A stretch of 64,000 bases of DNA from assembly GCA_963846005.1 (NCBI GenBank), contig CAWJUH010000003.1, positions 803,992 to 867,991 of the forward strand, given 5' to 3'. This document shows, piece by piece, positions 2 to 22,946 of the stretch. The notes under the pieces were generated by a model. It ran no database searches. It was not told where the DNA came from and saw nothing but the letters and a program-made list of their open reading frames with translations. How positions within the stretch are numbered: the stretch's first letter is position 1; every line of letters starts with the position of its first letter. This DNA is from an uncultured Actinomycetota bacterium. Lineage in GTDB: Bacteria > Actinomycetota > Actinomycetes > Streptosporangiales > Streptosporangiaceae. A program made the translations under genes and the position numbers.

Positions 2-2227
2 GCCCAGTTGGCCGGCATCCTGGGCCGACCGCCTGACCTGGCGGTCGCAGCCGCGGCGTATGAGCGTGGCGGCGGGAACCCGCTGCTCACCGAGGTTCTG
101 CTGGACACCGACGGCACGATCACCCCAGGGCTGCCCGGCCCGGCACGGGACCTGCTGCTCGGCGTGGTAGGCGAGCTGCCCGCAGACTGCCAGCGGGTGC
201 TGCGGACCGTCGCGGTCGGCGGCGCCTCGATCGGGCAGCGGCTGCTGGCTGCGGTGACTGGGCAGGACGGCGCGGCACTCGATGATGCGCTGCGGCCCGC
301 CGTCACGGCTGGCGTGCTGGTGGCCGGCGAGGCTAGTTATGCCTTCCGTCATGAGTTGTTCCGCGAAGCGTTGCTGTGGGATCTGCTGCCCGGCGAGCGG
401 GTTAAGGCCCACCGGGCATTCGCCGAGGCCCTGCAGGCCGACCCGCGGCTCAGCCTCCATCACGTGCCGTCGTTCCCGCTGGCGCTGCACTGGCAGGGGG
501 CGGGGGAGCATCAGCGAGCACTCCAGGCCGCGTGGGCCGCGGCTGATGCCGCGGGTTCAGTTTTCGCCTACGCGGAGCAGCTGCAGATGCTGGAACTGGT
601 GCTGGACCTATGGCAGTCAGTGCCCGGCGCAGCCGGGCATGCCGGCGTAGACCGGGCGACGGTGACGGAGATCGCGGCCGAGGCCGCGCGGCTGGCCGGC
701 GAGCCCGAACGCGGCCTGGCGCTCCTGGAAGCGGCCCTAAGTGAGCTGGATGACGAGCACGATCCTGGCCGGTTGGCCTCCCTTCTGCGGCTGCGGGTCA
801 CCCTGCGACGGCAACTGCTGCTGCCAGGAGACATAGACGCTCTTCGAGCGGCACTCCATCTAGCTTCCACTCCGACACGGGTACGCGCCCAGATACTGGC
901 CCAGCTCAGTGCGGCATTGCGGCTTCGCGACGAATACGCAGAAGCCGAACGGTTCGCCACAGAGATGCAGGCCCTCGCGGCCCGGCTCGGCGATGAGGAG
1001 ATCCAGGTTGAGGCATCGCTCATGGTGGTGCTGGCGCGGGAGAGCAGAGACTACGACACCATTCCGGACCTGGAGGCTGTCGCCGAGCAGGCCCGGCGAA
1101 TTGGTGCGGGACGGATTGAGATTAGCGCCCGGGTGGAGATCACCTACGCCCTGGAGGGCTGCGGCGAGCACGAGGCCGCGATTCGGGCCGGGCAGAAGGA
1201 TCTGGCCCGTGCCAGGCAGCTCGGCCTGTCCCAGTATGCGTCGGCGCCGATCGCGGGGAACCTGGCCGAGTCACTGACCTCGGCGGGCCACTGGGATGAG
1301 GCTCTTGAGGTGATCGAGGACGGCCTAAGGCTCGGCCCGGCACCATTTAGCCGGGTGTTCCTGATGGCATGCCGTGGCCAGATATCACTCGCCCGAGGTG
1401 ATCTGGAGACGGCGGGGAGGATCGCGGAGGAACTTCACGCGCTGCGCGCCGACGAAACTGACACGCAGTGGGCGATGCCGCTGACCCTGCTGGACATCCA
1501 GGTCCGGCTCGCCGAAGGGGACCTAGCCCGGGCTCTGGCGGTCGCGACCGCGGTCGCGGGTATGCGGGGACGCGACCCGCGGTACCTGTGGCCGGTCCTG
1601 GCGGCTGCGATGCAGGCCTGCGCCGACGCGGCGGGTGCTGACCGGGTCGCCGGGCCGCGGGATGCCCTGGCCCAGCTGGCAGCGGGCACCGCGCGGCCAG
1701 GGCCGGTGGAGCGTGCCCACGCTGCAGTATTCACCGCCGAGGGATCGCGTGCCGCGGGCCACGCTGATCTGACGGCCTGGGATGCGGCCGTTACGGCCTG
1801 GGACCCGGTAGGGCAGCCGTATCCGCTGGCGTGCGCGCTGCTGCGCGCCGCCACCGCAGCAGCGCAGCAGGACCGGGACGGAGCAGCTGGACGCCTGCGC
1901 CGGGCTGCGAACCTTGCGGCCCGGCTGGGTGCGCGGCCGCTGCTGGAGCAGATTGCGCGGCTGGCCCGGCGGGCCCGGATCGACCTCCCGCCGGCGGCCG
2001 CGGGCCAGTCCGGGCCAGCCGCGCCGTTCGGCCTGACTGCCCGGGAGATGGAGGTCTTGCGCCTGGTGGCGGCCGGGCGAGGCAACCAGCAGGTCGCCGC
2101 CGAGTTGTTCATCTCCCCCAAGACCGCCAGCGTGCATGTGTCCAACATCCTGGGCAAGCTCGGCGTCACGTCCCGGGTCGAAGCCGCCGCGGCCGCTCAC
2201 CGGCTGCACCTGCTGGACCAGAGCTGA
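2..2227 (+). CDS. LuxR-family transcriptional regulator, large ATP-binding (LAL) type; 5'-partial at window edge
   Basis: Long open frame with GC3-rich codons; C-terminal LuxR HTH (LTAREMEVLRLVAAGRGNQQVAAELFISPKTASVHVSNILGKLGV); TPR-like Ala/Leu-rich middle region. Confidence 0.75.
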   Translation, partial: AQLAGILGRPPDLAVAAAAYERGGGNPLLTEVLLDTDGTITPGLPGPARDLLLGVVGELPADCQRVLRTVAVGGASIGQRLLAAVTGQDGAALDDALRPAVTAGVLVAGEASYAFRHELFREALLWDLLPGERVKAHRAFAEALQADPRLSLHHVPSFPLALHWQGAGEHQRALQAAWAAADAAGSVFAYAEQLQMLELVLDLWQSVPGAAGHAGVDRATVTEIAAEAARLAGEPERGLALLEAALSELDDEHDPGRLASLLRLRVTLRRQLLLPGDIDALRAALHLASTPTRVRAQILAQLSAALRLRDEYAEAERFATEMQALAARLGDEEIQVEASLMVVLARESRDYDTIPDLEAVAEQARRIGAGRIEISARVEITYALEGCGEHEAAIRAGQKDLARARQLGLSQYASAPIAGNLAESLTSAGHWDEALEVIEDGLRLGPAPFSRVFLMACRGQISLARGDLETAGRIAEELHALRADETDTQWAMPLTLLDIQVRLAEGDLARALAVATAVAGMRGRDPRYLWPVLAAAMQACADAAGADRVAGPRDALAQLAAGTARPGPVERAHAAVFTAEGSRAAGHADLTAWDAAVTAWDPVGQPYPLACALLRAATAAAQQDRDGAAGRLRRAANLAARLGARPLLEQIARLARRARIDLPPAAAGQSGPAAPFGLTAREMEVLRLVAAGRGNQQVAAELFISPKTASVHVSNILGKLGVTSRVEAAAAAHRLHLLDQS

Positions 2228-2433
2228 CCGGCAGCGGGCCCGGGCAGCCGGGCTGAGCCGGGCGGTGCAGGCCCGGCTAAGCGTTTTCCTACCCGGTTGG
2301 CGTGGGCGGGTGGCTGGAATCGGGCTGCTGCCCGATGCGGGGGCGGGCGCTCTTACGGCCAGTCTTGGTGGTGTGCGGCATGGACCGGAGTACCGGGCCG
2401 CACGGCCATGATCGTCGTGGCCGCGAGGAGGAA

Positions 2434-2892
2434 ATGAAAGTGGATTACAAGCTGGAGCTGGTCCTGATCCCTGTTTCGGATGTGGACCGGGCGAAGAGGT
2501 TCTACGTGGAGCAGGCGGGTTTCAGCCTGCTCGTCGACGGCGGCACCTGGCTGCCCGGTCAGCGGGTCGTGCAAGTGAACCCACCCGGGTCGACCTGCTC
2601 GATCGGGTTCGGGACCGGGATGACCCCCGGAATGACTCCCGCCGCGCCGGGCTCGCAGCAGGGACTGCACCTGGTGGTTCCCGACATCGTTGCTGCCCGG
2701 GACGAGCTGGCCGGCCGAGGCGTCGAGATCGGCGAAGTGCAGCACATCGCCGACGGCGAGTGGCGGCCCGGCCTGGACCCGCAGCGCCGCAGCTACATGT
2801 CGTTCGCCGAGTTCGCCGACCCGGACGGCAACTTGCTGCTGCTCCAGGAGGTCCGCCGTGACGAGGACGGGCAGGAAGGAGACGACCGGTGA
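2434..2892 (+). CDS. VOC family protein (glyoxalase/bleomycin-resistance fold)
   Basis: ATG at 2434 preceded by GAGGAGGAA RBS; VOC-like sequence (LVLIPVSDVDRAKRFY...VVPDIVAARDEL). Confidence 0.6.
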   Translation: MKVDYKLELVLIPVSDVDRAKRFYVEQAGFSLLVDGGTWLPGQRVVQVNPPGSTCSIGFGTGMTPGMTPAAPGSQQGLHLVVPDIVAARDELAGRGVEIGEVQHIADGEWRPGLDPQRRSYMSFAEFADPDGNLLLLQEVRRDEDGQEGDDR

Positions 2893-3281
2893 TGGAGCTG
2901 CCCGCCGATGTCTGCGCGCTGTTCGAGGCGCCCAACTTCGCCCACCTGGCCACCGTCCTTCCGAGCGGCGGCCCGCATACGGTCCCGGTCTGGGTGGGGA
3001 TCGAAGACGACAAGATCGCCTTTCTGACCTCACCAAACTCTCAGAAGGCACGCAACATAACAGCCGACCCCAGCGTGGCGATCTCGGTCATCGACCGGGG
3101 CAATCCCTACGTGATGGCGCTGCTACGCGGCCGGGTTACCGCCCGGCTGGACGGCGAGCCGGCCTGGGAATTCATCGACCGGCTCTCCCGCACCTATACC
3201 GGCCAGCCCTACCCGCTGCGCACCGACCGGGCGGTGTTCCTTATCGAAGCCGACCACGCCCGCGCCCACGTCTACGGGTGA
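2889..3281 (+). CDS. PPOX-class (pyridoxamine 5'-phosphate oxidase-like) F420/FMN-binding protein
   Basis: Start overlaps upstream stop (GTGATGG); small split-barrel-like sequence typical of actinobacterial PPOX class proteins. Confidence 0.55.
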   Translation: MMELPADVCALFEAPNFAHLATVLPSGGPHTVPVWVGIEDDKIAFLTSPNSQKARNITADPSVAISVIDRGNPYVMALLRGRVTARLDGEPAWEFIDRLSRTYTGQPYPLRTDRAVFLIEADHARAHVYG

Positions 3282-3324
3282 CCCCGCCTGCGCCGGTCAT
3301 CTCGACAGCACTCACGGAGCACAC

Positions 3325-4023
3325 ATGAGCGCCAGCCGAACACGAATCAATGCCAGCGAACGCGCCCTGGAAGACGAGGAAGCCCGCCTCGCCGCAGCCT
3401 CTCTCGCAGCCGGCGACCCCACCGGGTGGTTCGACCGCCTCTACGCGGCGGGCGCCGCGGGACGAGTGGCTGTCCCGTGGAGCCGCCGCGAGCCCAACTC
3501 GCTGCTCACTGAGTGGGCGCAGCGCCACAACCTGGCCGGCCAGGGCAAGCGAGCGATCGTGCCCGGCTGCGGGCTCGGCGCCGACGCCGAATACCTTGCC
3601 GGACTCGGATTCGCCGTCACTGCTTTTGACGTCTCCCCGACCGCGATCCGGCTCGCCCGGCAACGCCACCGCCGCACGTCCGTAGAGTATGTCAGCGCGG
3701 ACTTGCTACACCTTCCCCCGCCGTGGCTGCAAGCGTTCGACCTGGTAGCCGAGATCATCACCGTGCAGGCACTACCCCGGGCGGTGAGGCAACAGGCAAC
3801 GGCCAGCGTGGCCCGGCTGACCGCGCCCGGCGGCACCCTGCTGGTCATCGCCGCAATCAACGACCGCAGGGGCGAACCGCAATCCGGGCCGCCATGGCCG
3901 CTCACCCGCACCGAACTTGACGCGTTCGCCGCCGACGGCCTCACCGCGCAGGGCATCGAGATCGCCACCATCCCGTCGGAACCCGCGCAACGCCGCTGGC
4001 GCGCGGAGTTCCACCGCCCATGA
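3325..4023 (+). CDS. Class I SAM-dependent methyltransferase (TPMT-like)
   Basis: Motif I-like region AIVPGCGLGADAEYLAGLGFAVTAFDVSPTAI; 232 aa. Confidence 0.6.
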   Translation: MSASRTRINASERALEDEEARLAAASLAAGDPTGWFDRLYAAGAAGRVAVPWSRREPNSLLTEWAQRHNLAGQGKRAIVPGCGLGADAEYLAGLGFAVTAFDVSPTAIRLARQRHRRTSVEYVSADLLHLPPPWLQAFDLVAEIITVQALPRAVRQQATASVARLTAPGGTLLVIAAINDRRGEPQSGPPWPLTRTELDAFAADGLTAQGIEIATIPSEPAQRRWRAEFHRP

Positions 4024-4218
4024 ACACCTCGAAACCATCTGTCACCGGGCACGCAGGCCGTATCGATCTGGCTGCCGACGGCTGGACACCGTCGCGATCG
4101 ACGCGCTCCCCCTCCCCACCGGGCCGGAGGAGCAGCGGCGGGCCGCTCCTTTCCGCCGTCCCACGACCAAGCAATCCGACACCGACTCAAGCCAGCACCG
4201 CAAGTAAAGGATGGACCC

Positions 4219-4663
4219 ATGTCATTTGCACCACGCTTCGACCATGTCGGCATCACCGTCGCGGACCTCGACACGGTGACGGCGTTCTTCGTCGGGCTCG
4301 GTCTGGAGGTCGAGGGCACGCGGGCGTTCATCGAGGGCGAGTTCCTGGACACCGTCATTGGCATCCCCGGCGCCCGCACCGAGATTGTCATGCTGCGGCC
4401 GCCCGACGGAGGCACCCGGCTGGAACTGTCCAGCTTCGTCCGGCCCGGCCCCCAGCCCGGGTCGCCGGGCCGCGATGGCCAACGAGCTAGGGCTGCGCAA
4501 CGTCGCCTTCGAGGTTGACGACCTCCAGGCCGCCGTCGACCAGCTCGCCAAAGACGGCTACGGACTGGTCGGCGGCATCGGCCAGTACGAGCACATCTGG
4601 CGCATGGCCTACGTGCGCGGGCCGGAAGGAATCATCGTGTCCCTGGCCGAGCGCATCGGCTGA
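4219..4663 (+). pseudogene. VOC/glyoxalase family gene interrupted by apparent frameshift (two overlapping ORFs 4219..4518 and 4358..4663)
   Basis: N-terminal half (HVGITVADLDTVTAFFVGLGLEVEG...) and C-terminal half (NVAFEVDDLQAAVDQLAKDGYGLVGG...IIVSLAE) lie in different frames. Confidence 0.5.
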
Positions 4664-6101
4664 CGCGCCAATCGCCATAGACGATCCGCTTGCGACCCAC
4701 CCTCGGTGACAACCGGCGGCAGAGAGAACAGAACTGGCTATCGGGCACGCCCTCAAGGACTGCCAGCGAAACGCGCCGAATCGGCGTTATACGGGTGATC
4801 GTTGTCAAGGGGTTTGCTCTTCGGTGTCGACGCGCTTGATGAGGTTGATGAACAGGGCGGCTCGCGCGGGCTGCCCGTGGTCGCGGGCGTGGTCGCGCTG
4901 GCGGGTGAGGATGGGCAGGAACTCGGTGCTGGTGCGGAAGTAGGCGCAGGTTTCGCAGGCGGATTCCATGCGGCAGTCGAGTTCGGCGGGCCGGGTGCAC
5001 AGGCCGTTGCCGAGCATGCGGGCGTGGGCTTCGCGGCGTAGCTTCGGCCATGCCGGTGGTCTCGTAGTCGGCGGGCAGTTCGGGTGGCTGCCCGTAGAGC
5101 GCGTCGATCTTGGCGCTGACCGCGGCGTATTCGTCGGCGATGACCCGGTTGGCGATCCGCGCGTAGATCAGGGTCATCTCCATCTTGCGATGGCCGAGCA
5201 GGGCGGCGATGGCTTCCAGCCGCATGCCGCGGTTGATCGCCTGGGTGGCCAGCGTGTGCCGCAGCCGGTGCGGGTGCACCCCGGGGACGCCGGCGGCCCG
5301 GGCGACGCGGGCAACGATGCGGCCGATGACATAGCGGTCCAGCGGGCCGCGGTGGTCGGCGACCAGCGGGCGGTGGCGGCGGATGTGCTCAAGGCTGGCT
5401 GCGGTCCAGGCGGCGAGCAGCTCCACCAGCTCAGAATGCAGTGGCACGTAGCGATCGTTGCGGAGCTTGCCCAGCGGGATGCGCAGCCAGTGACCGGTGC
5501 CGATCTGCACGACCGCGTCCGCTTCCAGGTCCGCGAGCTCACCGGCTCGCATGCCAGTGCGCGCGAGTAGCTCGACGACGAGCCGGTCGCGGGGATCGTC
5601 TGCGGCCCGGGCGGCGGCCATCAGCCTGGTCGCGTCGCGATCGTCGAGGAACTTCGGCAGCGGCTCGGGCTTCTTGGGGATGTCCCCGGCGATGACAGGA
5701 TTGCGGGCCGGGGCGTCCTGCCAGTCCCACTCGATGATCCGCTCGAAGAACTGGCGCACGGTCCGCATCCGCTGCCGGTGCGTCTCAGCGGTGATCGTCT
5801 GGCTGCCTGCCCGGGGCTGGACGGCCAGCCATACCTTGTAGTCCTCGATGTCATCGCGGCGGATATCGCCGATCGCGGTGATGCCGGCATCGGTGATCAT
5901 CCAGCGGGCCAGCTGCCGCAGCGCGTTCTCCGCGGCCGCGACGCTGGCCGGGGCGAGGAAGGTGCCCAGCCGCTGCAGATACCGCTCGATCACCGCCGCA
6001 ACCTGCGGCGCCGCCGCCCGGATCTGCACCCACTGCGCGGCGGCGGCGCTGCCAGCCACCGCGCGGCCGGCGGCCGGAGCGCGCGCGGGCAGCGCGCTCA
6101 C
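4632..6101 (-). CDS. Tyrosine recombinase (phage integrase family); C-terminal end uncertain (possible frameshift near 5040)
   Basis: HRLRHTLAT box, LLGHRKMEMTLIYARI catalytic Tyr region; N-terminal SAM-like core-binding domain; tail after ~5040 is low-complexity while the alternative frame 4805..5017 carries a Cys-containing motif. Confidence 0.65.
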   Translation of the reverse strand: MSALPARAPAAGRAVAGSAAAAQWVQIRAAAPQVAAVIERYLQRLGTFLAPASVAAAENALRQLARWMITDAGITAIGDIRRDDIEDYKVWLAVQPRAGSQTITAETHRQRMRTVRQFFERIIEWDWQDAPARNPVIAGDIPKKPEPLPKFLDDRDATRLMAAARAADDPRDRLVVELLARTGMRAGELADLEADAVVQIGTGHWLRIPLGKLRNDRYVPLHSELVELLAAWTAASLEHIRRHRPLVADHRGPLDRYVIGRIVARVARAAGVPGVHPHRLRHTLATQAINRGMRLEAIAALLGHRKMEMTLIYARIANRVIADEYAAVSAKIDALYGQPPELPADYETTGMAEATPRSPRPHARQRPVHPARRTRLPHGIRLRNLRLLPHQHRVPAHPHPPARPRPRPRAARASRPVHQPHQARRHRRANPLTTITRITPIRRVSLAVLEGVPDSQFCSLCRRLSPRVGRKRIVYGDWRVSRCARPGTR

Positions 6102-7201
6102 CGGGCTGCCTCCTGCACCGCCAGCATCTCGCAGACGGCGGCGGTATCGGCGTCGATCAGCGCGGCGGCGCGTAGATACTCCCCGGCCAGCCAGTCATTG
6201 GCCAGGTGCAGGTAGACCCGGGTGGACTCAATCGACCGATGACCGGCCTGGGCCTGCACCGCCTCCAGTGCCATCCCCGCCTCCCGCAGCCGGGTCAGGC
6301 ACGTATGCCGCAGCTCATGGCAGGTCGCGTGCTCCAGGCCCGCGCGGCCGCGGGCGCCATCGAGGATCTCATCCAGCCCTTCCGCCGACAGCGGCATACC
6401 TCGCCGCGGACCCTTGAGCACCACGAACACCCGGTCCGTGGCCGCCCCGGCTGGCCGCTCGTCATGCAGGTAATCACCGAGCGCCTCGAAGAACCGGCCC
6501 GCGGCCGGGACCACCCGGTGATGACCGCCCTTGCCCTCCACCACGGCCAGCCGCCGGTCAGCGACCTGCACGTCCTCGAACCGCAACCCCAGCACCTCAC
6601 ACCGGCGCAGCCCGGCCAGCAGCATCGCCAGCACCATTGCCCGGTCCCGGTGCGTGCGCAACGCGGCGACCAGCCGGTCCGCCTCCCGCGGCGGCAAGAT
6701 CCTCGGCAGCGTCCGCGGCACCCGCACCAGCGGCACCGTCCGCGACCGCACCGACCCGCCCTGCCGCCGGGTCAGCAGCCCCCGCGGCACCGGATTGACC
6801 TGCACCGGCGTATCGCCCCGCGCCACCAGGTAGGCATATAGGCCCGACACCGACGACAGCCGGCGGGCGATCGTCCTCGCCGACAGCCCCGACTCACCAT
6901 CAGCCAGCCGCACCACAGTGCGGTCCCCGCGCTGATGGGCCAGGAACTCGAACACATCCGCCGCGGTGACCTCCACCGGCTTTCTCACGATCACCATGAA
7001 GAACGTCTTCAGGTCAAAGGCCACCGCCCGCAGCGTGTTCGGCCGGCACCGCCCCGCCACGAACTCCAGATACCGGTCCACCAGCCGCTCGCCCAGACGA
7101 TAACGGACCTGGCCAGACCCCGACACACTACGCACAAGACACGGGAAGCTGCTCATCCCAGCACCGTCCCAGCGCGGCCCGCAAGAACGCGGAAGCGACA
7201 C
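6098..7201 (-). CDS. Tyrosine recombinase, XerC/XerD-like; translationally coupled to the downstream recombinase by a 4-nt overlap
   Basis: HELRHTCLT box, AGHRSIESTRVYLHL catalytic Tyr region; 367 aa. Confidence 0.75.
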   Translation of the reverse strand: MSLPRSCGPRWDGAGMSSFPCLVRSVSGSGQVRYRLGERLVDRYLEFVAGRCRPNTLRAVAFDLKTFFMVIVRKPVEVTAADVFEFLAHQRGDRTVVRLADGESGLSARTIARRLSSVSGLYAYLVARGDTPVQVNPVPRGLLTRRQGGSVRSRTVPLVRVPRTLPRILPPREADRLVAALRTHRDRAMVLAMLLAGLRRCEVLGLRFEDVQVADRRLAVVEGKGGHHRVVPAAGRFFEALGDYLHDERPAGAATDRVFVVLKGPRRGMPLSAEGLDEILDGARGRAGLEHATCHELRHTCLTRLREAGMALEAVQAQAGHRSIESTRVYLHLANDWLAGEYLRAAALIDADTAAVCEMLAVQEAAR

Positions 7202-7441
7202 ACATCACCCGTGTATTAAGCGATCTGGCTGCACGGACGCTCAGGCTCCACGTCACATTCGATGACCAGTCGGGCTCTATAAGGAAGTAGCTCACGCCCG
7301 CGAACCGATTTCCTAGGTGCCCAGACCGACCCGGCTCAAGATCGGCTCCCAAAATCGGACATCGCCGCTCCCAAAATCAGACAATTCGGACCCGTGGCGA
7401 ACTTCATGATCGGAATACGGAGCGCTGACATGCGAATATGT

Positions 7442-7485
7442 GGTCGGGGTGGCCGGATTTGAACCGGCGGCCTCTTCGTCCCGAA
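7442..7485. repeat. 44-bp direct repeat identical to 24369..24412 (3' part of tRNA-Pro); distal att site of the integrated element
   Basis: Exact identity gtcggggtggccggatttgaaccggcggcctcttcgtcccgaa at both loci. Confidence 0.85.
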
Positions 7486-7911
7486 GCCAAGTTCCCGGCT
7501 CCCTGACGTCTGGACCTCGTGGGGTTGATCTGCTTGGCTCGTCTGCCAACGTCCGTGGGAGTCCACGAAGGAGCTAGGCGATTGTCACTCAGTTAGTCAC
7601 TCACTTCGGCACTGCCGGTGGAAGTGGTCACCTGCTTGCAAAGGTTGTGGCTGCACTCGCCTGACATACGGCTGCCCAGGTCAGGCGCTGTCGGACTTGC
7701 CCGTGAGTAACCGCGGCCGACTGCTAGCGGCCGTCCTAGCGGCACGCGGCGGGCACGACTGGCGATTTTCAAGATCGCTATGGCGCCGGTTTGGGTACTT
7801 GCCTGTGGCCTGCGCTGATGCCGCTAGGGCTGCCGAGCTCCGGCAAGCTCATCCCGTGCATATCCCGCACCTGATGAGCTGATCGGCGGCCGTGGCGGGA
7901 ACATAGCTGAC

Positions 7912-8460
7912 ATGAGTGATCTCATTGTCGTGACCGGGCCGCCGGGAGCTGGCAAGAGCACGGTCGCCCCGTCGTTGTCGCGACAGTTCGACCCCAGCGC
8001 CCTGGTGGCGGGGGACGTGTTCTTCGCCTTCATCGACCAGGGCTTTCTGGCGCCGTGGACCAGCGAGGCCCACCGTCAGAATGAGGTCGTCATCGACGCC
8101 GCAGCGGCTGCGGCAGGGCGCCTGGCCCGCGGCGGATACACGGTGGTCTATGACGGCGTGATCGGCCCGTGGTTCGTGCAGGCATTCGCGGCCGCCGCCG
8201 CCATCTCATCCCTCCACTACGTGATCTTGCTGCCGCCTGAGGAACTGTGCCTGGAACGAGTCCGCGTCAGGGCCGACCACGGCTTCCGGGACCAGGAGGC
8301 CGCCCGCCACATGTACCGGGAGTTCGCCACCGTCAGCGTTCATCCGCGGCACGTGCACGCCGGGACACAAGACGCAGCCAGCACCGCAACGATCTTGCGT
8401 GAACGAGTGCTCGATGGATCACTCCGCATAACCGCCGACTCCACCGATTCAGCCTCCTGA
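7912..8460 (+). CDS. P-loop NTPase / small kinase-like ATP-binding protein
   Basis: Walker A GPPGAGKST near N-terminus; 182 aa. Confidence 0.5.
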   Translation: MSDLIVVTGPPGAGKSTVAPSLSRQFDPSALVAGDVFFAFIDQGFLAPWTSEAHRQNEVVIDAAAAAAGRLARGGYTVVYDGVIGPWFVQAFAAAAAISSLHYVILLPPEELCLERVRVRADHGFRDQEAARHMYREFATVSVHPRHVHAGTQDAASTATILRERVLDGSLRITADSTDSAS

Positions 8461-9124
8461 TGCGTAGGCACCCGACAGGGCCGTCTGGGCTCGTTCAGAT
8501 CGGTCCGCGACCTTGGGCGCATCCTGGCTGGGCGTTCATTCCTGTTCGGATTCCCGCCAAGTCGTCCGCCCGGGTGGCTCCCAACTTGGCTCCCGACCGA
8601 TATGGGTCTGACCTCTTCCTCATCAGGGTGTCGGCTGACTGCCCAGGCGGTTGTCGGCGACGCTCGAATGTGGGGCTGTTGCCCCGGCGCCTATGGCCTC
8701 GTTTTCGAGCGGCGCCGACAGCGGTGGTTTCAGTCCTCTGTCCTGCGTTTACAGCACTAGTCTGCTCCCAGACCTGCCCTGTGATGTCCTGCGTCTGCCC
8801 GTACTTCCCAGGACTCTAAAGGCCACTGTAAGGCCAGCTCTAGGGAAGATCCGCTAGGAGCGGGGCCCGGCCAGGCTACTCGCCGATCAGCGCCTTGAAC
8901 GACGGCTCGTCGCGGATCGAGTTGAAGTCAGAGTCTTCGCGTGCATCTGCGCGGAGCTTCTCTGACGCGCCGACCGCGCTCCCCAAGTGATCGATCGCCT
9001 CGGCTGTGTGGCCGCTCAGGCTCTCGCTGCAGGGGAGGGAGGAAGGTGGATGCACGCGAAGATTCGCTTATCATCGAAGATGATTGCATGCAGTGCTTCG
9101 GAGGCGATGGGTGTGACAACGACG

Positions 9125-9556
9125 ATGGTCAGGATGATTATTGCGGTTTCGTCAGTATGCATGATTGCAGGCTGCGGGACAGCAGGCAATACAAGCCAAC
9201 CTTTGATGTCGCATAAAGCACATAAATTCATTACGGTTCCGACATCGTCAGCGCCGCCTGGCGCTCCAGGCCTGTCTGCCCTCACCAGAGGGCGTCTGGA
9301 GGCGGGCCGATTTAAGGGCAAGCCGTGTCTTTGGCTCGGGAACGGTACTCGCACGATGGCTGTTGTCTGGCCGCGAGGATTTAAAGCACGATGGCAGCGA
9401 GATAAGCTTGAGCTGCTGAATGCCCGGGGCAAGGTAGTTGCTGAGAGCGGCGAGATTATAAAGCTCGGGGGAGGAACGGCTCCTGCCCCGCAGGTCGCCT
9501 GCATGCTTGGTCATGAGCTAGCGTTCTACGCAAGCGGAGGCCCAGCGCGTGGCTAA
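9125..9556 (+). CDS. Putative lipoprotein (alternative start 9050)
   Basis: Signal peptide with lipobox MVRMIIAVSSVCMIAGC; lies in AT-richer island. Confidence 0.45.
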   Translation: MVRMIIAVSSVCMIAGCGTAGNTSQPLMSHKAHKFITVPTSSAPPGAPGLSALTRGRLEAGRFKGKPCLWLGNGTRTMAVVWPRGFKARWQRDKLELLNARGKVVAESGEIIKLGGGTAPAPQVACMLGHELAFYASGGPARG

Positions 9557-9575
9557 CGGCAGATGAGGCGATGCC

Positions 9576-10628
9576 TCATCCTACGGAAGTGCCGAAGAAC
9601 GAGTCGATGTTGCCTATTTGTTCATAGTAGCCGACGTGGCAATTGTCGCCTTGACTGTTACAGTCACCCCCTCCGATTGTAGTTCCGGCGATTTTGGCGC
9701 CGTTGCTGTCCCTCACAATCCATGGTCCTCCGCTGTCTCCTTCACTAACAACCGGAGTGTCGTCGTAGCCTGTGGATGTGACCCAGGCTCTGGTTATACC
9801 GTCGGAAAAGGCTACATACTGGTTGACACTTTGCACTGAGATGTCGTTTACTTCGCCCGTAAAGGCACTGTCTTGCGTGACCAAGTCGAAGGGCTGCGGA
9901 AAGGCAGTCCCGTCTTCAGCGTAGCTCGCCTGGCTTTTATCGCCCCCACTCCACACGTTCCATGAGTAGTTGCTGTTCGCGGAATTATGATCTATAAGCT
10001 CAGAATCGATGCAATTATTACAGAGCCGGACTTCAAAAACATTACCCATGTGCGGCCCGCCGGTCTGGCCAGACCTATCGCTTCTGTAAACATATTTATT
10101 AAGCTGCGGCTCGCAGTGACCAGCTGTTAGCATATAGTTATAACTGCCGATATGAACGATCGGTCCCCCGGTGCATTGGCTACTTGATGCGGGGATCAGA
10201 ATGAAGTCTCCTCCGAAGTATGGGGGCGTGTCATTTATCCGGTCTGCCGGTATGGGCCTGGGCATTGAAGTTTTTGAGACCACTACAGAATTACCGTACA
10301 GGGAATATAGTACATGAGCCGCCGCTTGGCTATAATGGGTGAGGCGAATTTCGACTTTGCCTGACCTGGGATCTGGACCCCACTGAGTCAGCTCTACACC
10401 TTTAGCTTTGAGGTTAGCCTCGCTGGCAGCGATGGATTGAGTAGTGACCTTATTCTGAGCCGACCCCCAGCCAAGCAAGGATGCCGGGTTGGGGTTATGG
10501 CCATCTCGCACTGTCTTCAGGCGAACCGACAGGGCTGCTGCCGACGTAGTTGCCATAGCAGGTCCGATCAGCAGGCAGGACACTGCAGAAATTGACACTG
10601 CAATTTTAACTAACTTAGGACTATTCAT
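9576..10628 (-). CDS. Secreted S1-family serine protease (chymotrypsin/streptogrisin-like)
   Basis: N-terminal signal peptide; catalytic His motif LTAGHC and Ser motif GDSGGP; visibly lower GC than flanks. Confidence 0.75.
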   Translation of the reverse strand: MNSPKLVKIAVSISAVSCLLIGPAMATTSAAALSVRLKTVRDGHNPNPASLLGWGSAQNKVTTQSIAASEANLKAKGVELTQWGPDPRSGKVEIRLTHYSQAAAHVLYSLYGNSVVVSKTSMPRPIPADRINDTPPYFGGDFILIPASSSQCTGGPIVHIGSYNYMLTAGHCEPQLNKYVYRSDRSGQTGGPHMGNVFEVRLCNNCIDSELIDHNSANSNYSWNVWSGGDKSQASYAEDGTAFPQPFDLVTQDSAFTGEVNDISVQSVNQYVAFSDGITRAWVTSTGYDDTPVVSEGDSGGPWIVRDSNGAKIAGTTIGGGDCNSQGDNCHVGYYEQIGNIDSFFGTSVG

Positions 10629-10971
10629 TACAGAATGATAAGTATTCAGGTCTCACAAGGCAAGACCCACAGGCCAGCTTCTTGCGCAACGCAGCTCTGC
10701 ATCGCTAGCAAAGACCTTCTGGCCTCGTCGCTGCGGAGACGCAACCCCCAGCCTTCTGATCCGTAGAGTGTGTCGGCCGTACGCGCGACCTGCCGTGTGC
10801 CGTCCGGGCAGCCATAACGGCTTTCGCTGGTGCGCATTGCTCGTCGCTATTGTGCGGTACTGTCCGGCCAGGATCCGGCCAGTCTCAGCCGGTGATCTCC
10901 TGGCGAGCGGGTGCGATCCCGGCTGCTGCACTTGCGTGCTCCACCAGCCGGCCTCGGCATACCGTGGGCCG

Positions 10972-11706
10972 ATGTTCGCTATTGAGGAACGAGAGCGAGT
11001 GCGGGGCCGTTTGCTGGAGCTGGCCGCCGCCGACCCCACCGTGAACGGAGCCGCGGTCACCGGCTCGCACGCGGCGGGCAGTTCCGACCGGTGGTCAGAT
11101 ATCGACCTGGCGCTCGCTATCCCCGGCTCGCTGGCCGCTTCGCTTGATCAGTGGACGGATGTGCTGACCCGGGATTTCGCCGCGGTGCATCACTGGGATC
11201 TTCGGTCAGGCTCGGCGGTGTACCGCGTGTTCTTGCTGCCGGGCTGGCTGGAGGTGGACATCGCGTTCATCCCGGCCGCTGAGTTCGGCCCGCTCGGACC
11301 GAACTGGCGCACTGTCTTCGGCGCCACCGTGCCGCTCGAACCATCCGGTCCGCCGGAGTTCAGCCAGCTAGCTGGCCTGGCCTGGCATCACGCCCTGCAC
11401 GCCCGAGTCAGCATGGAGCGGCAACGGTACCTGCAAGCTGAATACTGGATCGGCGCAATGCGCAGCCAGGTGATCGCTTTGACCTGCCTGCGGCTCGGGT
11501 ACCCGGACGCCCATGCCAAGACCGCGCACCGGCTGCCCGCCGATGTCACCGCCCGGCTGGCCAACACGCTCGTCAGATCGCTGGATCCGGCTGAGCTGCG
11601 CCGCGCCCTGGCCGCCGCCACGACAGCCCTGTCCGCCGAGCTTGAATACCCCAGTAATAGCCAGACCAGACGGCTGGACTCGATGCTGATCGAACGGACA
11701 CGCTGA
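10972..11706 (+). CDS. Nucleotidyltransferase domain protein (Pol-beta superfamily; possibly antibiotic NTase-like)
   Basis: GS-x10-DID signature (VTGSHAAGSSDRWSDIDLALAI); ATG at 10972. Confidence 0.55.
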   Translation: MFAIEERERVRGRLLELAAADPTVNGAAVTGSHAAGSSDRWSDIDLALAIPGSLAASLDQWTDVLTRDFAAVHHWDLRSGSAVYRVFLLPGWLEVDIAFIPAAEFGPLGPNWRTVFGATVPLEPSGPPEFSQLAGLAWHHALHARVSMERQRYLQAEYWIGAMRSQVIALTCLRLGYPDAHAKTAHRLPADVTARLANTLVRSLDPAELRRALAAATTALSAELEYPSNSQTRRLDSMLIERTR

Positions 11707-12004
11707 CCAGTTCCTTATCAGGCAAACCCGAGCACGCTTGCGACCATGGCCAACGTGGCCGCTGACCTGGGCGGACCGTCCCCGGCCGTCCGTGGCCGTC
11801 TGCCTGGTCGCGTGGTGATTGTTACGCAGTTGGTTACTCAGTCCGTGCCACGCCTCGATGCGCAAAGCATCTTGCCGTTAACGGCCCCGAAGGCCGCGCA
11901 AGGCTAGGCCTCCGATCTGCTGTCATGAATGCCCAGACAGTCGTTTGGTCCGCGACTGGTCCATGGCGGCTGACCGGGCCGTCGGCTGTGAAGACTATCG
12001 ACTG

Positions 12005-12487
12005 CTAGTCAGCCCGTTCATTGATACTCGCTATCTCTTCTACAAATCGCGATCTAAGCTCCGCCAAGGTTTGAGGCAGGCACGACTCATCACAGCGCTT
12101 CTTGGTCGCATTAGTTATGTAGGTGAACCAGCTGTAAACCGGATCCCTGCCATAATTAGGTATGATTGGGTCTTTCTGGAGATCTTTCCTGATTTGCGCG
12201 CTTGACACGCGACATTCAATGAACTTCTCTTGATTGACAGGGAGGCGCAGGCAACGCCACTTCCAAGATCCATTCGAAGAAACCACAACTGCAGGCCCGC
12301 CTATGTTTATCTCCCAAAAGGTGACAAGAGGTTCACGTTTCCCAAGGAACCGTCCAAATTCAATCGAAAGCTCGCTTAGGCACTTCGCGACTTCGTCGTA
12401 GTGGTACAGCAGACTGGCCACTGCACCCTCACGATCACGCTTCTTCTGCTCCAGCAGATCTAGTGCTTCATCCTCGATGCTCGGCAT
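12005..12487 (-). CDS. Hypothetical protein (low-GC cargo)
   Basis: 160-aa ORF in AT-richer island; no recognizable motif. Confidence 0.4.
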   Translation of the reverse strand: MPSIEDEALDLLEQKKRDREGAVASLLYHYDEVAKCLSELSIEFGRFLGKREPLVTFWEINIGGPAVVVSSNGSWKWRCLRLPVNQEKFIECRVSSAQIRKDLQKDPIIPNYGRDPVYSWFTYITNATKKRCDESCLPQTLAELRSRFVEEIASINERAD

Positions 12488-12864
12488 ACCCCATAACGTA
12501 AAGCACGGTCAGCACCCCCGCACGGGAGTCAAACGCGCAACTAACTGCTTAGGAGAACTTCAAGATCATCGATCCGACCTGTATTATTGCAGGTCATCGG
12601 CGGTTCCCATTGCGCATGAGTGCCCCTGAGGCAGCGGGTTTGCCTAGCACTGGGGCACGAACAGGGCACGACACCTGACCCTCTCGATGCGAACTCGCGG
12701 CCAGCCGGTCGATGATGGCGTTTGGGCAGGCCGCATGGTTGCTGACGGTCGCACCGGGAAAAATACGACTTTCGTCCGCTTCTGTCAAAGTTGTTTACTC
12801 TAGCAGCCCGCCAAGAAAACAAGTGTTGCTAGGCTTTTCATCGCCGTCTTTTAGGAGCAGAAAC

Positions 12865-13809
12865 TCAAGGCAGCGCAGAGTCTGCCGCGATATAGTAATA
12901 TTGAAGTATTCGTTCGCCTATTTCGGTGGGACTCCATTGCGTAGGGGACGTAAGGCCCACAGCGTCCCGTTCTGAGATTGCAGGCACAATTGGAGTCGAG
13001 TTATTGGCTGAGTAATATCCATGCGGAGAATGTGTATATGAGTCTGAAAGCGAGTCATTGCTTAGCTTTTTGGAATATTTCGCTAGCATGCTTGGAGAAT
13101 TATCGAATTGCTGCGCCAAGCCATGCCGCTGAAGCGTGGCGATCAGACTGGTCAGCACTTCTCGCAGTGAAGGTCTGGCTTCTTCAATTTGGTAGTTCGA
13201 CCATTTGCGCCGACCGATTGTCCAGCCGCTTCTGGTGAAATCTCCTGCAATGAACCCGTGGGGCCTAGTGTTGTGAATTGGAAATTTTTCATGCTTGATA
13301 GGACTGTCCTGTTTCCCGTCCTTCCCTTCGGATGGCACCCAGTTAACGATGAGCTCCAGTACAGATAGATGAGGGCGTTCCAAGTCTGCCATTGCAGGAA
13401 GGGCCAAATCAGCAAAGTATATCTGAGCTTCATCCGAAGCAATTAGGCCGCCCGCCAAGGCTCTGCCAAGTGCATGCACTTTAGGAGGCCAAGCCGTACT
13501 AGATGCCGAAGTCATCGCGTTCATTGCTATGAGCCGCGTACGTTCGGAAGCGTTAATCAGACCTGCGAGTTTCTCAGGGTCACACTCTGCCGCTATCGAG
13601 GCGCTGGTAAGCATTCCCTTAACTCGCCGTCGCGCGTCAGATCGGAATTCCCCCACGGCTTTGTTGAGGAAGTCCTCTAGATATGGACTGGAAAGTGCAC
13701 CAATTGCGATCCCATCGATTCCGCCTAGCCTTGCGCCTGCGACGACTGCGGAGGCATCAGCCACAGCTCTTATAAGGCGACTTGGTTCCTGATCCTCATC
13801 TGACGTCAC
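12865..13809 (-). CDS. Hypothetical protein (low-GC cargo)
   Basis: 314-aa ORF in AT-richer island; no recognizable motif. Confidence 0.45.
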   Translation of the reverse strand: MTSDEDQEPSRLIRAVADASAVVAGARLGGIDGIAIGALSSPYLEDFLNKAVGEFRSDARRRVKGMLTSASIAAECDPEKLAGLINASERTRLIAMNAMTSASSTAWPPKVHALGRALAGGLIASDEAQIYFADLALPAMADLERPHLSVLELIVNWVPSEGKDGKQDSPIKHEKFPIHNTRPHGFIAGDFTRSGWTIGRRKWSNYQIEEARPSLREVLTSLIATLQRHGLAQQFDNSPSMLAKYSKKLSNDSLSDSYTHSPHGYYSANNSTPIVPAISERDAVGLTSPTQWSPTEIGERILQYYYIAADSALP

Positions 13810-14404
13810 AGGGCATAGCCTAATCCGTCTTGACGATGATTCGAGCTCTCTCGATGGTTATCCGACTCAGCCACAGCTTCCCCGTCCTCCCTGGTAGGTG
13901 CCGAGATCTTGCCGGGGAAGGTCGCAGTCAAGGGGCGGCGCGTGCGCCGATCGCGTAGCGACGCGCCCTTGGGCGCGCCCTTTACTGTGACCTTTCTCCG
14001 GTGAGAGGATGCCCGGCGTGTGGAGGACGGCTCCTTCCGCCACACTGCGGGCTGCGCGTGGGCTATCCGTGCCGGGTGTTCGTGGCGGCCGGGCTGTGGT
14101 GCGGGCCGGGGCGGGGCGGACCTGCCTTGCGGCAGTTGCCCGCGCCGTGCCTCCCCAGGCTAAGGCAGCGGGCAGAACTGCCGCCCCGGCGCAGACAGTA
14201 GCCCCGCCACCCGGCACGCTGACGCCAAGGCGCCCTTGCTGCTTTTACTCGACGCGCTGCTCGGCTCAGGCTTTCGTGCGTGCCTGGCCGTCGGCGCCGG
14301 GCCGGGGTGCGGGCCGTCTGGCGCGCCCGCAAGGGCGTGCCCTTGAAGCTGTAGAGAAAATCGTCACAGTTCACAGGCACTAATTCGATGAAGCATTCGA
14401 CTGG

Positions 14405-15586
14405 TCAGGCGAGTGGAGGGCTAGGCCCGTCGCCTCCGATGGTGGTTCCTGTCGGCCATAGCTTCTCCAGCTCGGCGGGCGTGAGCGGATCCCGGTAAGC
14501 GGCTTGCAGGACACTGCGCCAGGCGTCGGCGGGCGCTTGCGCGAGCTGGGTGAACCAGTCAATGCCGGCGGGATAAGACCACTGGTAGGACCGCAGCAAG
14601 GGGTCTGCTCCCCGGTCAGTGAGCATGTCAGCGATCTCGGCTTCCGTCCAGAACGGAACATGGCCGCTCGCATAGGCGGCGCACTGGTCGATGCTGGCTC
14701 CGGAGTTCACCGCGATGTGCAGGGCCGCCCGTACGAGCTGGGTGTAGTGATCGATCCGGACTCTGGTCATCAGCAGCTTGTCGTCCGGCGCGACGAACAG
14801 CGGCAGCGTCTGGCCGAGTCCTTCCAGCAGTACCTGCTGGGGTGCGTGTACCGACAGCAGCCGGACCCACGGCACTGGACCGGCCGCGCAGCGCTGGGCG
14901 TAGCTGGCTCCCTGGAGACCGTGGCCCAGGATCTCGTGCAGGGCGAACTGGCGGGCGTGAGCTTCGGTGAACCGGGCTTCTTTGAGGTTGAGGCGCAGTC
15001 GAACGTCCGGTCCGCTGCCGTCGGTCCAGAAGGCCCAGTAGGCGTTGACGGTGGTGGTCTCGATGGTCAACTCATACGGCGCGGTGGCTCCCGTAAGTTC
15101 CCGGACGACCGGCTCGTATCTGAGGGCCGCGTCCCCGATGGCACCGGGGGCATCGGATGCGTCGATCGGCCTTTCGATGTGTTCCTGGTCTTTGCGGGTG
15201 CGGGCGTTCCAGCCGATGCCAAGGTCGGCCAGCTGGCGGCGTGCCAGCTCTCCTGCGTGCTGGATGTAGTCCTCAGGCCAGCCCAGGGCGTGACAGCCCT
15301 GGGTGCCGAAGATGTAGCTGTCCAGGTCGGCGCGCTGGCCCATCAGCTCCCGTAGGTAGAGCAGATGAGCCCCGGTCCGCTCGGCCAGCATCGGTTCGCC
15401 GCTGGCCTCGGCTTGCTGCTTCAATGCCGCTAGCCGTTGGTAGGTGGTCAGCCGGTCAGCAGGCTTGATGTCCTCGCTCGCGGACTGCGGGTGGCAGTCG
15501 TAGTCGATCACGGCGGGCGCACCGCGCGCCAGCTCGTGTTCGTGCCAGGCCCGCAACGCCCGCTCGATCTGGTCACGAAGCGGCAC
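14405..15586 (-). CDS. Putative zinc metallopeptidase (HExxH motif; DUF1704/ImmA-IrrE-like gluzincin is a guess)
   Basis: FALHEILGHGLQ motif; 393 aa; 14-nt overlap with the upstream gene. Confidence 0.45.
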   Translation of the reverse strand: MPLRDQIERALRAWHEHELARGAPAVIDYDCHPQSASEDIKPADRLTTYQRLAALKQQAEASGEPMLAERTGAHLLYLRELMGQRADLDSYIFGTQGCHALGWPEDYIQHAGELARRQLADLGIGWNARTRKDQEHIERPIDASDAPGAIGDAALRYEPVVRELTGATAPYELTIETTTVNAYWAFWTDGSGPDVRLRLNLKEARFTEAHARQFALHEILGHGLQGASYAQRCAAGPVPWVRLLSVHAPQQVLLEGLGQTLPLFVAPDDKLLMTRVRIDHYTQLVRAALHIAVNSGASIDQCAAYASGHVPFWTEAEIADMLTDRGADPLLRSYQWSYPAGIDWFTQLAQAPADAWRSVLQAAYRDPLTPAELEKLWPTGTTIGGDGPSPPLA

Positions 15587-16727
15587 TATCGGTATCCCAT
15601 CTCAGCTCAACGATCTGCCCGGGCCGCAGGTAGTCCGCGGCCAGGGTCAGGCTCACGCCGTGGTCATCGTAGTCCCACAGCAGCCCCTCGCTGACCGGCA
15701 TTTCCGACCCATCCGGCCGCTCGACCGTGGCCGCGCATTCGCTGAGCCGCTTGATATTCAGGTGCCGGACCCGCAGCGTGTAGTGGCGGGTGTAGCGCGG
15801 CATCGTTTGCCGCCAGTACCACTCGTCATGAAATGACCCGCCCTCGCACGTATACCGGATCACCGTGCGCTCTCCCGGTCCGAGCGGCGGCGAGATCTTG
15901 AACGCGAACTTGGCCAGCGATCCCGCGTCGTGAATGCGCTGGATCACCACGGCCCGGTCGTTGTGCTTGGTCGCCTTGATGACAATCGGCGCGTAGGTGT
16001 ACTGGAACCAGACCTCACGCGGCATGCGCACGAGTGGCTGCTCACCGAGATTGAGCAGATCATGCTCATATAGCACGTGCACCCGGCCGTGATCATCGAT
16101 CTCCAGGCTCAGGCTCAGCTCCAGCTCGACCACGTTGCCCGCCAGCGCGGCGAGCTGCCGGGTCTCAGTGTCCGACAACCGGAGCTGGCGGCTCAGCTCG
16201 ACTAGCCGCTTCCCTAGCTTCCGGGCACTGACGCTGTCCTGATCGCGCACATAATCGCTGATCGCGCTGGCCACTATCTGACGCGCACCGACAGTCCGGT
16301 CATCGGCGCCGGTTGGCCCCCATGCGGGCGGTGAGGTATCCGGCTGCCGCAATCCGGTATCGATCGCGCCCAGAACCTGTCCGATGTCCTTGCGCGCCAG
16401 CGCGCCCTGCCCACGTGACCCGGCCAGATCACCGTCATTGCTACCTGCGGGCTGGAAAAGCTGCGCAATCGTCCAGTCGGGAAACATCACCTCCAGCACC
16501 CGGCAATGGTGAGAGAAAGGCAGCCGTTTCACACTCCCGGACAGCCAGCGCTGATACTGCGCCCGGCTCGGAGACGACCCAGCCAGATCCGGGTCCACCA
16601 CGTGAGCGGCCTTGTCGTACTCCGCGCAGAACGTCGCATACGACTGCCAATGACGCTGTTCTAGCAGGACCTTCAACCGGATCGGCGATGACTTCACGCT
16701 GCCCTCCCGTGATGTCTCAGCTATCAC
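15573..16727 (-). CDS. Hypothetical protein with possible N-terminal HTH (XRE-like) region
   Basis: 384 aa; N-terminus IRLKVLLEQRHWQSYATFCAEYDKAA resembles an HTH; divergent from the + strand operon starting at 16900. Confidence 0.4.
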   Translation of the reverse strand: MIAETSREGSVKSSPIRLKVLLEQRHWQSYATFCAEYDKAAHVVDPDLAGSSPSRAQYQRWLSGSVKRLPFSHHCRVLEVMFPDWTIAQLFQPAGSNDGDLAGSRGQGALARKDIGQVLGAIDTGLRQPDTSPPAWGPTGADDRTVGARQIVASAISDYVRDQDSVSARKLGKRLVELSRQLRLSDTETRQLAALAGNVVELELSLSLEIDDHGRVHVLYEHDLLNLGEQPLVRMPREVWFQYTYAPIVIKATKHNDRAVVIQRIHDAGSLAKFAFKISPPLGPGERTVIRYTCEGGSFHDEWYWRQTMPRYTRHYTLRVRHLNIKRLSECAATVERPDGSEMPVSEGLLWDYDDHGVSLTLAADYLRPGQIVELRWDTDSAAS

Positions 16728-17661: not shown

Positions 17662-17664
17662 TAC

Positions 17665-18739: not shown

Positions 18740-18744
18740 CAGCA

Positions 18745-19835: not shown

Positions 19836-19841
19836 CACCCG

Positions 19842-22902: not shown

Positions 22903-22946
22903 CTGACCTCCGCCCGACTACGCATCTGCCGAAAGGAAGTGATCCC

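Follow-up and report, generated by a model that had tools for sequence, protein, structure and literature searches.

A pair of overlapping tyrosine recombinase genes lies on the minus strand of a 64,000-nt stretch of high-G+C actinomycete DNA (about 70% G+C; contig CAWJUH010000003.1 of an uncultured member of the Streptosporangiaceae; hereafter the window), just outside an actinomycete integrative and conjugative element (AICE). The question raised by this locus is what the two genes belong to: the AICE, the chromosome or a mobile element of their own. A first-pass annotation of the sequence had proposed a second, separate mobile element, of the Tn554 tnpA/tnpB type or of the ritA/B/C (RIT) type, or else the remnant of a tandem array. 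Our analysis indicates that the region 4784–7222 (minus strand) very probably holds one integrated copy of a transposon that belongs to the Tn554 lineage, carries no cargo and has the size of an insertion sequence (IS), a result that bears out the first of these proposals through reciprocal protein matches and sharp, conserved ends.

A two-gene element with conserved ends

Delimited by its ends, the pair is a discrete element of 2,436 bp, spanning 4784–7219 plus one duplicated CGC and containing two genes only. When the window was compared by BLAST with loci recovered through both proteins, nucleotide similarity to locus L001 (94.7%) and about ten other close loci, L005–L010 among them, ran from 7222–7228 to 4772–4785, and the flanks of the similar loci were mutually unrelated. 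The terminal repeats that the first-pass annotation had suggested looking for were found at both ends, as imperfect inverted repeats. The left one, TTAATACACGGGTGAT on the minus strand (7204–7219), lies 64 nt upstream of the ATG of gene 1 and was recognised at about 70 related loci. The right one, of the form (CTTGACA-N2-3-)ATCACCCGTATAA, directly follows gene 2 (4787–4809, CTTGACAACG-ATCACCCGTATAA on the minus strand) and was recognised at about 45 loci, where it marks the point at which similarity ends on the 3' side. Outside each repeat lies a CGC core (7220–7222 at the left junction and 4784–4786 at the right one, both on the minus strand); two copies of it flank the element in the junction listing, and one is present in the empty sites of loci L100, L109, L106 and L110.

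The end motifs occurred at the same distances in about 70 of 83 loci, with 65–97% amino-acid identity, in genomes and metagenome-assembled genomes (MAGs) of Streptosporangiaceae, Trebonia, Mycobacterium, Microthrixaceae, Ilumatobacteraceae, Acidimicrobiaceae and Solirubrobacterales; they span MAGs of the Actinomycetes, Acidimicrobiia and Thermoleophilia. Sharp ends of this kind, shared by more than 60 loci whose flanks are unrelated, argue against the remnant of a tandem array. Three size classes were distinguished: one of about 2.40–2.44 kb with two genes, to which the window copy belongs, one of about 2.70 kb with an extra conserved open reading frame (ORF) of 76 aa, and one of about 2.98 kb, whose second protein has 608 aa and whose terminal inverted repeats are the same.

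The 76-aa ORF (MPxITLD...GHPAY...LFGEPTP) follows gene 2 and precedes the right inverted repeat (8345–8575 in L002; also in L005, L007, L008 and L064); it is not in the window copy and gave no Pfam or PHROG match. In all subfamilies, the conserved CTTGACA motif, which resembles a -35 box (window 4800–4809), lies immediately internal to the right inverted repeat, where it could serve as an additional binding site or belong to a promoter at the junction. A sigma-70 promoter scan of 4600–7500 returned no sites.

Copies of the element in other genomes

In one-genome-per-species contigs, 464 relatives were confirmed, and thousands of metagenome homologues were found on contigs of 2–4 kb. The relatives are spread over hundreds of genomes and metagenome contigs of Actinomycetota, and the element is common in soil actinobacteria. 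Several genomes contained two to six copies that were 99.7–100% identical over the whole unit (about 2.43 kb) and had different flanks, with three copies each in OY970164, CAWFWE and CAWFDU and six in Mycobacterium sp. SM1. In locus L002, two diverged elements are found in tandem, about 120 bp apart (2153–4400 and 4523–10351), the second one broken by two ISs, a Transposase_mut IS and a DDE_Tnp_1_4 IS. Locus L009 contains, at about 720–860, a miniature of about 150 bp resembling a miniature inverted-repeat transposable element, made of left-end-like and right-end-like repeats only and bordered by typical target-like flanks. Identical multiple copies, an interrupted copy and a miniature are together the marks of a family of active transposable elements.

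Target site and empty site

The analysis of 57 left and 42 right junctions of the 2.4–2.7-kb group revealed a common pattern, with (T)GCCCC-N-[G/T]A[T/A]-CGC on the left, TTAATAC...element...CGTATAA for the element itself, and CGC-CGG-N-TC-N-GGGG on the right. Copies from the same genome vary at the N positions of this pattern, and for this reason the bases at these positions were taken as derived from the target. Each flank fits the consensus independently, and the complete site has an 11-6-11, dif-like and partly palindromic layout. In the window, the left arm of the occupied target is GTGCAGCCAGAT (7223–7234) and the right arm CGATTCGGCGCG (4772–4783), both on the minus strand, in agreement with the left-flank consensus (T)GCCCC-N-[GT]A[TA], the right-flank consensus CGG-N-TC-N-GGGG and the empty sites described below (gcggCCAGAT-CGC-CGA). 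Unoccupied copies of the site (...GCCCCNGA[AT]CGCCGGG...) were frequent around elements, with 73 position weight matrix matches of at least 14 bits against 3 in shuffled sequence. A hairpin target with locus-specific complementary arms was also considered and rejected, as the two flanks of the same locus were no more complementary than flanks taken from different loci, and in a permutation test the observed value was attained in 4,977 of 5,000 shuffles.

A scan of metagenomes with a direct-repeat motif present beside the tRNA copy of the window yielded 22 contigs, in several of which tRNA-Pro, its downstream flank and the upstream gene form one unbroken stretch that lacks an AICE. At the homologous position downstream of tRNA-Pro, the relatives L100/L109 and L106/L110 carry the empty site gcggCCAGATCGCCGA. 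The empty target in these relatives is CCAGATCGCCGA, and the window reads gcagCCAGAT-CGC-[element]-CGC-CGA; since the empty sites hold a single CGC, insertion lengthens the locus by 2,436 bp, one additional CGC among them. The hotspot of the AICE, next to which the first-pass annotation had placed the insertion, is not what the element uses; it has a target of its own (CCAGAT-CGC-CGA), located 219 bp downstream of the tRNA copy and empty in relatives.

A sister subfamily (L059–L082), corresponding to the 2.98-kb class with the 608-aa TnpB-like protein (e.g., L073, 4918–7897), has a different but equally specific target; Mycobacterium sp. SM1 carries at least 6 of its copies. Every copy lies antisense within another tyrosine recombinase gene, TnpB-like or Rit-like, whose box II LGH motif it splits between the Gly and the His codon, and no bases are duplicated. 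The analysis as a whole establishes the boundaries of the element, its target and orientation specificity, its orthology, its intact catalytic residues, its empty site and its multicopy, mobile status in other genomes.

The two recombinase genes

Both ORFs matched the PF00589 catalytic domain in profile searches (E = 5e-31 for 7201..6098 and E = 2e-30 for 6101..4632), gene 1 matching PF02899 in addition. On the minus strand they have 4 nt in common (GTGA), in which the start codon of gene 2 (GTG, 6101–6099) and the stop codon of gene 1 (TGA, 6100–6098) overlap, and they are regarded as translationally coupled. The two genes and their overlap had been recognised in the first-pass annotation, whose coordinates require correction at the start of gene 1 and at the end of gene 2. 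As the homologues of gene 1 are uniformly of 352–353 aa, its start is probably the ATG at 7156, and the GTG at 7201 just opens the longest ORF. Gene 1 (6098–7156, minus strand) encodes a TnpA-like tyrosine recombinase of 352 aa with an intact catalytic set. Its sequence differs from that of L001 at 59 nt, corresponding to merely 18 amino-acid differences, a ratio that points to purifying selection.

The alignment of gene 2 with three relatives revealed one surplus C at 5046/5047 on the minus strand (ATGGCCGAAG in the window and ATGGCGAAG in the relatives; GGCCG vs. GGCG), which is the sole indel in 2,447 nt aligned to L001 (94.4% identical). The ORF 6101..4632, as called, is a frameshift artefact. 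Once the frame is corrected, gene 2 stops at 4805 and its product of 431 aa matches homologues of 429–434 aa with up to 93% identity over 100% of their length. The frame changes after ...DYETTGMA and the conserved sequence resumes in the frame of a small ORF (4805..5017); the first-pass annotation had rightly noticed a switch near 5040 into a Cys-containing tail, and this frame is the true C-terminus of the protein. The 5' part of the gene (5048–6101, minus strand) encodes the core-binding and catalytic domains of a TnpB-like tyrosine recombinase, whereas the 3' part, in the shifted frame (4805–5045, minus strand; stop codon 4807–4805), encodes a tail with four cysteines (Cys4, C-x7-C-x5-C-x2-C) that aligns with the tails of the Tn558 and Rhodococcus proteins.

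The R-K-H-R-H-Y catalytic residues were invariant in both proteins in an alignment of six sequences, and the frameshift spares the catalytic domain of gene 2 but cuts off its Cys4 tail. In the corrected frame, 8 of 80 residues of the tail are changed and all four Cys are kept, and because it is still this well conserved, the lesion is either recent or an assembly error. A neighbouring gene of the VOC/glyoxalase type is likewise frameshifted, which bears on the choice between a real lesion and an assembly error. If the surplus C is real, the window copy is probably non-autonomous or defective, because the tail is conserved from the Staphylococcus-type TnpB to this family.

Relationship to the Tn554 family

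The proteins were compared with a reference for the Tn554 family of Bacillota (Tn554, Tn558, Tn6674), the tnpA-tnpB-tnpC/DUF6262-fexA unit (Tn558-type) of Enterococcus hirae plasmid pF104_1 (L084), and with two RIT trios (L086 and L087). A tblastn search against plasmids gave a weak but long match to the Tn558-type tnpB and 52% identity to a pair of genes from a Rhodococcus plasmid. In BLASTP, gene 1 scored 91 bits against Tn558 TnpA and 44 against TnpB, gene 2 scored 113 bits against TnpB and 43 against TnpA, and the reverse searches agreed. By reciprocal best match, gene 1 is TnpA-like and gene 2 TnpB-like, and the comparison between the Tn554 and RIT types that the first-pass annotation had recommended favours the former. 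In the pair from Rhodococcus pLP156, the short partner shows 62% identity to gene 1 (390 bits) and the long partner 51% to gene 2 (395 bits). In addition, the Cys4 tail (LGNGxCxxP...C....C..C..F.T..F) is common to gene 2, Tn558 TnpB and the Rhodococcus TnpB-like protein.

The element shares with the Tn554 family the adjacent and co-oriented tnpA-like and tnpB-like genes with reciprocal best similarity, the Cys4 tail of TnpB, full catalytic sets in both proteins, site- and orientation-specific insertion with no conventional target duplication, and imperfect terminal inverted repeats, as given for Tn554 in PMC10214605. It differs in that its proteins are only about 23–24% identical to those of the reference, in its size (2.44 kb with no cargo vs. 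about 6.7 kb) and in its target sequence.

Several observations weigh against the assignment of this locus to a Tn554-type transposon. Gene 2 encodes 431 aa, compared with 637 aa for Tn558 TnpB (about 610–640 in the family), and its alignment starts at TnpB residue 224, meaning that the N-terminal extension of about 200–220 aa of TnpB is missing. No TnpC/DUF6262 was found, nor any ORF between the stop codon of gene 2 (4805) and the right inverted repeat (4809–4787), and the 76-aa ORF of the relatives, considered as a candidate TnpC, was rejected for lack of similarity (hhalign probability of 0.1%). Tn554 and the SE elements leave a donor-derived 6-bp footprint, the left flank being copied to the new right junction (PMC10214605), whereas in the loci collected here, which include no donor–recipient pairs, the hexamer at the right junction is near-invariant (TAACGC), the hexamers of the left flank vary and only the third core base varies occasionally. 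The relatives with the empty site are only about 83% identical to the window in the flank. Finally, the 64-kb window contains a single copy, which is frameshifted, so that activity in the host genome would be putative, transposition being read from identical multicopy insertions in other genomes, and no circular junction or tandem copy was detected among the collected loci or in viral contigs.

The closest sequence relatives are the actinobacterial Tn554-related transposons, defined as a typical recombinase plus a recombinase of 611–828 aa, with TnpC optional (Van Houdt et al. 2012, PMC3414803). The 2.98-kb subfamily (L059–L082) fits that definition, whereas the window element carries the short, 431-aa partner. 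The ends, the target sites and the form with a short partner are not described in PMC3414803, and a full-text search found no description of the short form, its ends or its targets within the literature searched. The element is best described as a variant, without cargo and with a short TnpB, of a transposon lineage already known but little studied, that of Tn554; it is widespread and is mis-annotated as XerD.

Two further systems were set beside it. The SE/GInt elements of Proteobacteria (PMC10214605, PMC5385486) are also multi-recombinase, target-specific integrative elements previously compared with Tn554; by their description, they differ in having four core genes, including those for the non-catalytic Tfp/GinC and a TnpC-like protein, and in being large cargo islands. 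The bipartite module (BIM) of Cupriavidus consists of one recombinase and a conserved SMC-like protein (PMC3414803) and was ruled out, both genes being recombinases here.

Proposed transposition pathway

The data would fit conservative site-specific recombination. In the pathway that we propose, both recombinases would bind the inverted repeats, with a division of the sequences between the two proteins that is itself conjectural, and the ends would be joined at the shared CGC core to produce a putative circle with the junction ATCACCCGTATAA-CGC-TTAATACACGGGTGAT. Such a junction would have the layout of a classical core site, that is, two inverted arms around a short spacer, and it would integrate in one orientation into CC-N-[G/T]A[T/A]-CGC-CG[G/A], with only the 3-bp core being shared or duplicated. 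The left arm of the target resembles the right arm of the element (CCC-N-TAA/GAT-CGC); the exact positions of cleavage are likewise conjectural. After integration, attL would retain the bases of the target located 5' of CGC and attR the TAA of the element. In the window, the element landed in its own site 219 bp downstream of tRNA-Pro, a site now adjacent to the distal att copy of the AICE, which entered the tRNA independently.

Site arrays and the cassette alternative

Around elements of Acidimicrobiia MAGs, co-oriented arrays of a 28–34-bp palindromic site (GTGCCCC-NGAW-CGCCGG-NTCNGGGGCAC) were detected in a survey of the DNA 5 kb on either side of each element (L036, 454–4533; L043, L046, L052, L056, and L074). 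The sites are spaced by 300–1,300 bp (median 656 bp), each interval corresponding to roughly one gene, and relative to the element 62 of them have the same orientation and 19 the opposite one. In L046, a duplication of 180 nt (613–792 and 1880–2059), with 99.4% identity between the copies, stops precisely at the core of two sites, which suggests recombination at the site.

These arrays raise an alternative explanation, in which the pair would be the enzyme of an unrecognised integron- or dif-module-like cassette system of Actinomycetota, with the arrays bounding single-gene modules that are shuffled at the CGC core. We regard it as unlikely, although the co-oriented target arrays and the boundaries of the L046 duplication speak for it. 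It would equally have to explain that the element, provided with its own inverted repeats, moves as a unit into contexts with no array, such as the window, L001 and the integrase genes. A search for uniform, integron-like orientation of the ORFs in the arrays was negative, with 13 ORFs in the opposite and 17 in the same orientation, ORF calling being unreliable at this G+C content. There was no Rfam match, attC included, to the site arrays of L036, L043, L046, L056, and L074, and the proteins scored 68 and 53 bits in the integron-integrase models, far under the cutoff of 265. The target motif does not contain the AAC...GTT cores typical of attC. Moreover, a genome-wide intergenic repeat of the repetitive extragenic palindromic (REP) type that is merely targeted by the element would look identical in 5-kb flanks. 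As only DNA near the elements was sampled, a REP-like repeat used as target is the conservative reading of these sites.

The window itself contains no array, but a second, unoccupied site-like sequence is present at 4061–4087. It shares with the left junction the 12-mer CGATCTGGCTGC, found exactly twice in the window (4064–4075 and 7221–7232) against 0.02 expected occurrences, and it coincides with a synteny breakpoint in an MFS-like gene. The relatives L088–L090 (94% identical) are syntenic only up to 4072, where the MFS-like gene (MNTSKP.VTG...IDLA/MFYLG..., window 4020–4087) is cut after about 18 codons, its remainder not being in the window. The 711 bp between this breakpoint and the element (4073–4783) contain only the VOC/glyoxalase gene (4219–4663), frameshifted at about 4455–4475. 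Homologues of this gene, of 147 aa and 83–91% identical, were found on thousands of contigs. In nucleotide sequence it is 91–93% identical to copies elsewhere (L113–L121), the identity being confined to the ORF plus or minus about 30 nt.

In terms of the cassette alternative, the 711-bp VOC segment would have been captured and a rearrangement would have truncated the MFS-like gene at 4072, a scenario that we consider as improbable as the general one. The 12-mer, present just at the element junction and at the breakpoint, and the restriction of the VOC similarity to the ORF and its immediate surroundings are compatible with such a capture. However, the idea of the VOC gene as a cassette with conserved ends found no support and is speculative, as the other VOC loci have in common just the ORF with 30 nt on either side, and their flanks hold no conserved site.

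The adjoining AICE and the flank of tRNA-Pro

The position of the pair, no more than 241 bp from the distal att repeat, could also indicate membership in the adjoining AICE, or in another, decayed AICE that formed a tandem array with it at tRNA-Pro. The gene for tRNA-Pro(CGG) is located at 24369–24444, and its 3' 44 nt are exactly repeated, the copies being at 7442–7485 and 24369–24412. Between these copies lies a pSAM2-type AICE of about 16.9 kb (7486–24368) inserted in tRNA-Pro(CGG), with an integrase (23156–24301), a pSAM2-type RepSA (21205–22902), an FtsK/SpoIIIE-like protein (19958–21436) and a DUF932 gene (17546–18739); the presence of the integrase, RepSA and FtsK/SpoIIIE-like genes between the 44-nt copies led us to accept it as a real AICE. 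The distal att repeat is 219 bp from the element and 241 bp from 7201, in agreement with the location just outside the AICE, about 240 bp from the tRNA copy, that the first-pass annotation had given. The recombinase genes are outside the att repeats, the AICE has its own integrase, RepSA and FtsK-like genes, no third att copy was found, and the element occurs elsewhere without any AICE. In addition, the 219-bp spacer is the native flank of tRNA-Pro, as it is also present in contigs without the AICE. All this makes membership in the AICE or in a second, decayed one very unlikely, and the Tn554-type transposon remains our preferred interpretation of the pair.

The same spacer contains the two direct repeats that the first-pass annotation had located at 7339..7385 as 19-bp sequences. 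The repeats exist, but they are of 17 nt (GCTCCCAAAATC[G/A]GACA, at 7345–7361 and 7367–7383; 16 of 17 positions matching, 22-nt spacing), and the motif has two matches against 0.14 expected by chance. They are not ends or sites of the element, being about 120 bp outside it, and they form part of a conserved module of 57–110 nt (window 7335–7441) directly 3' of the tRNA copy. In the 22 metagenome contigs mentioned above (L091–L112), this module was found 3' of a complete or partial tRNA-Pro(CGG) or tRNA-Ala(CGC), also in contigs lacking both the AICE and the element, and it had no Rfam match. It is a conserved feature of the tRNA flank, perhaps the arm of an old integrative element or a regulatory site.

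Two side observations concern the AICE. Its interior, at about 9000–14000, has just 53–56% G+C, and short direct repeats of the type GTCACTCAG(T/A)TA are found just inside both of its ends (7584–7607 and about 24300–24335), where they may be arm-type binding sites of the integrase.

RIT and Xer alternatives

The RIT elements resemble the window element in their tandem, overlapping simple tyrosine recombinase genes, located between inverted repeats in an IS-like and cargo-less unit, and a RIT remnant that had lost one gene would account for the 4-nt overlap of the ORFs, as found in RITs, and for the weak scores obtained with RitA (74 bits) and RitC (77 bits). Nevertheless, we consider such a remnant highly improbable. 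RIT elements have three genes (ritA, ritB, and ritC), compared with the two that the inverted repeats enclose in the window and at dozens of loci, where this two-gene unit is complete and conserved. Their inverted repeats are reported as 34 bp, compared with about 16–20 bp in our case. The best RIT scores, with RitB at 32 bits or less, were below those of TnpA and TnpB and were not reciprocal, and the Cys4 tail is a feature of TnpB. No RitB-like gene or fragment is present. The RIT type suggested in the first-pass annotation was consequently abandoned in favour of Tn554, the best matches being TnpA and TnpB and the genes two rather than three.

XerC and XerD act at dif, a 28-bp site with an 11-6-11 palindromic layout, one of which is found at the replication terminus, and some elements exploit dif-like sites. 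The proteins of the window are Xer-like simple tyrosine recombinases as well, and their inferred target has the same 11-6-11 layout, but the pair is encoded by the element and has many sites per genome. It is extremely unlikely that the chromosome keeps the genes at this locus as XerC/XerD-type paralogues for housekeeping or dimer resolution: the best-named NCBIfam matches are XerC and XerD, the JGI labels homologues as XerD and the closest solved structures are XerA and XerD, but the scores (126 and 132 bits for XerC, 110 and 113 for XerD) are far under the equivalog cutoffs of 335 and 330, respectively, the site is empty in relatives, some genomes contain identical multiple copies, inverted repeats bound the unit and gene 2 is frameshifted. 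Conserved Xer paralogues and a lack of detectable boundaries, which the first-pass annotation had named as arguments against a mobile element, are both contradicted by these data.

Implications

For the window, the element explains both recombinase genes and the frameshifted gene, and separates them from the adjoining AICE. For the transposition of Tn554-type elements, a 2023 review gives the circular intermediate, the empty site and the route as not established. The family to which the window element is assigned represents the barest Tn554-type system, which fits two genes and a pair of short inverted repeats into 2.4 kb, and offers hundreds of natural insertions with defined targets and empty sites, so that it would be a convenient model for the roles of the two recombinases. 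It also implies that thousands of database proteins labelled "XerD" are transposon genes. The sister subfamily, because it inserts in catalytic-motif codons of integrase genes, is a transposon that disables other mobile elements, and the target of the short form is a repeated palindromic site at which breakpoints of rearrangements also fall.

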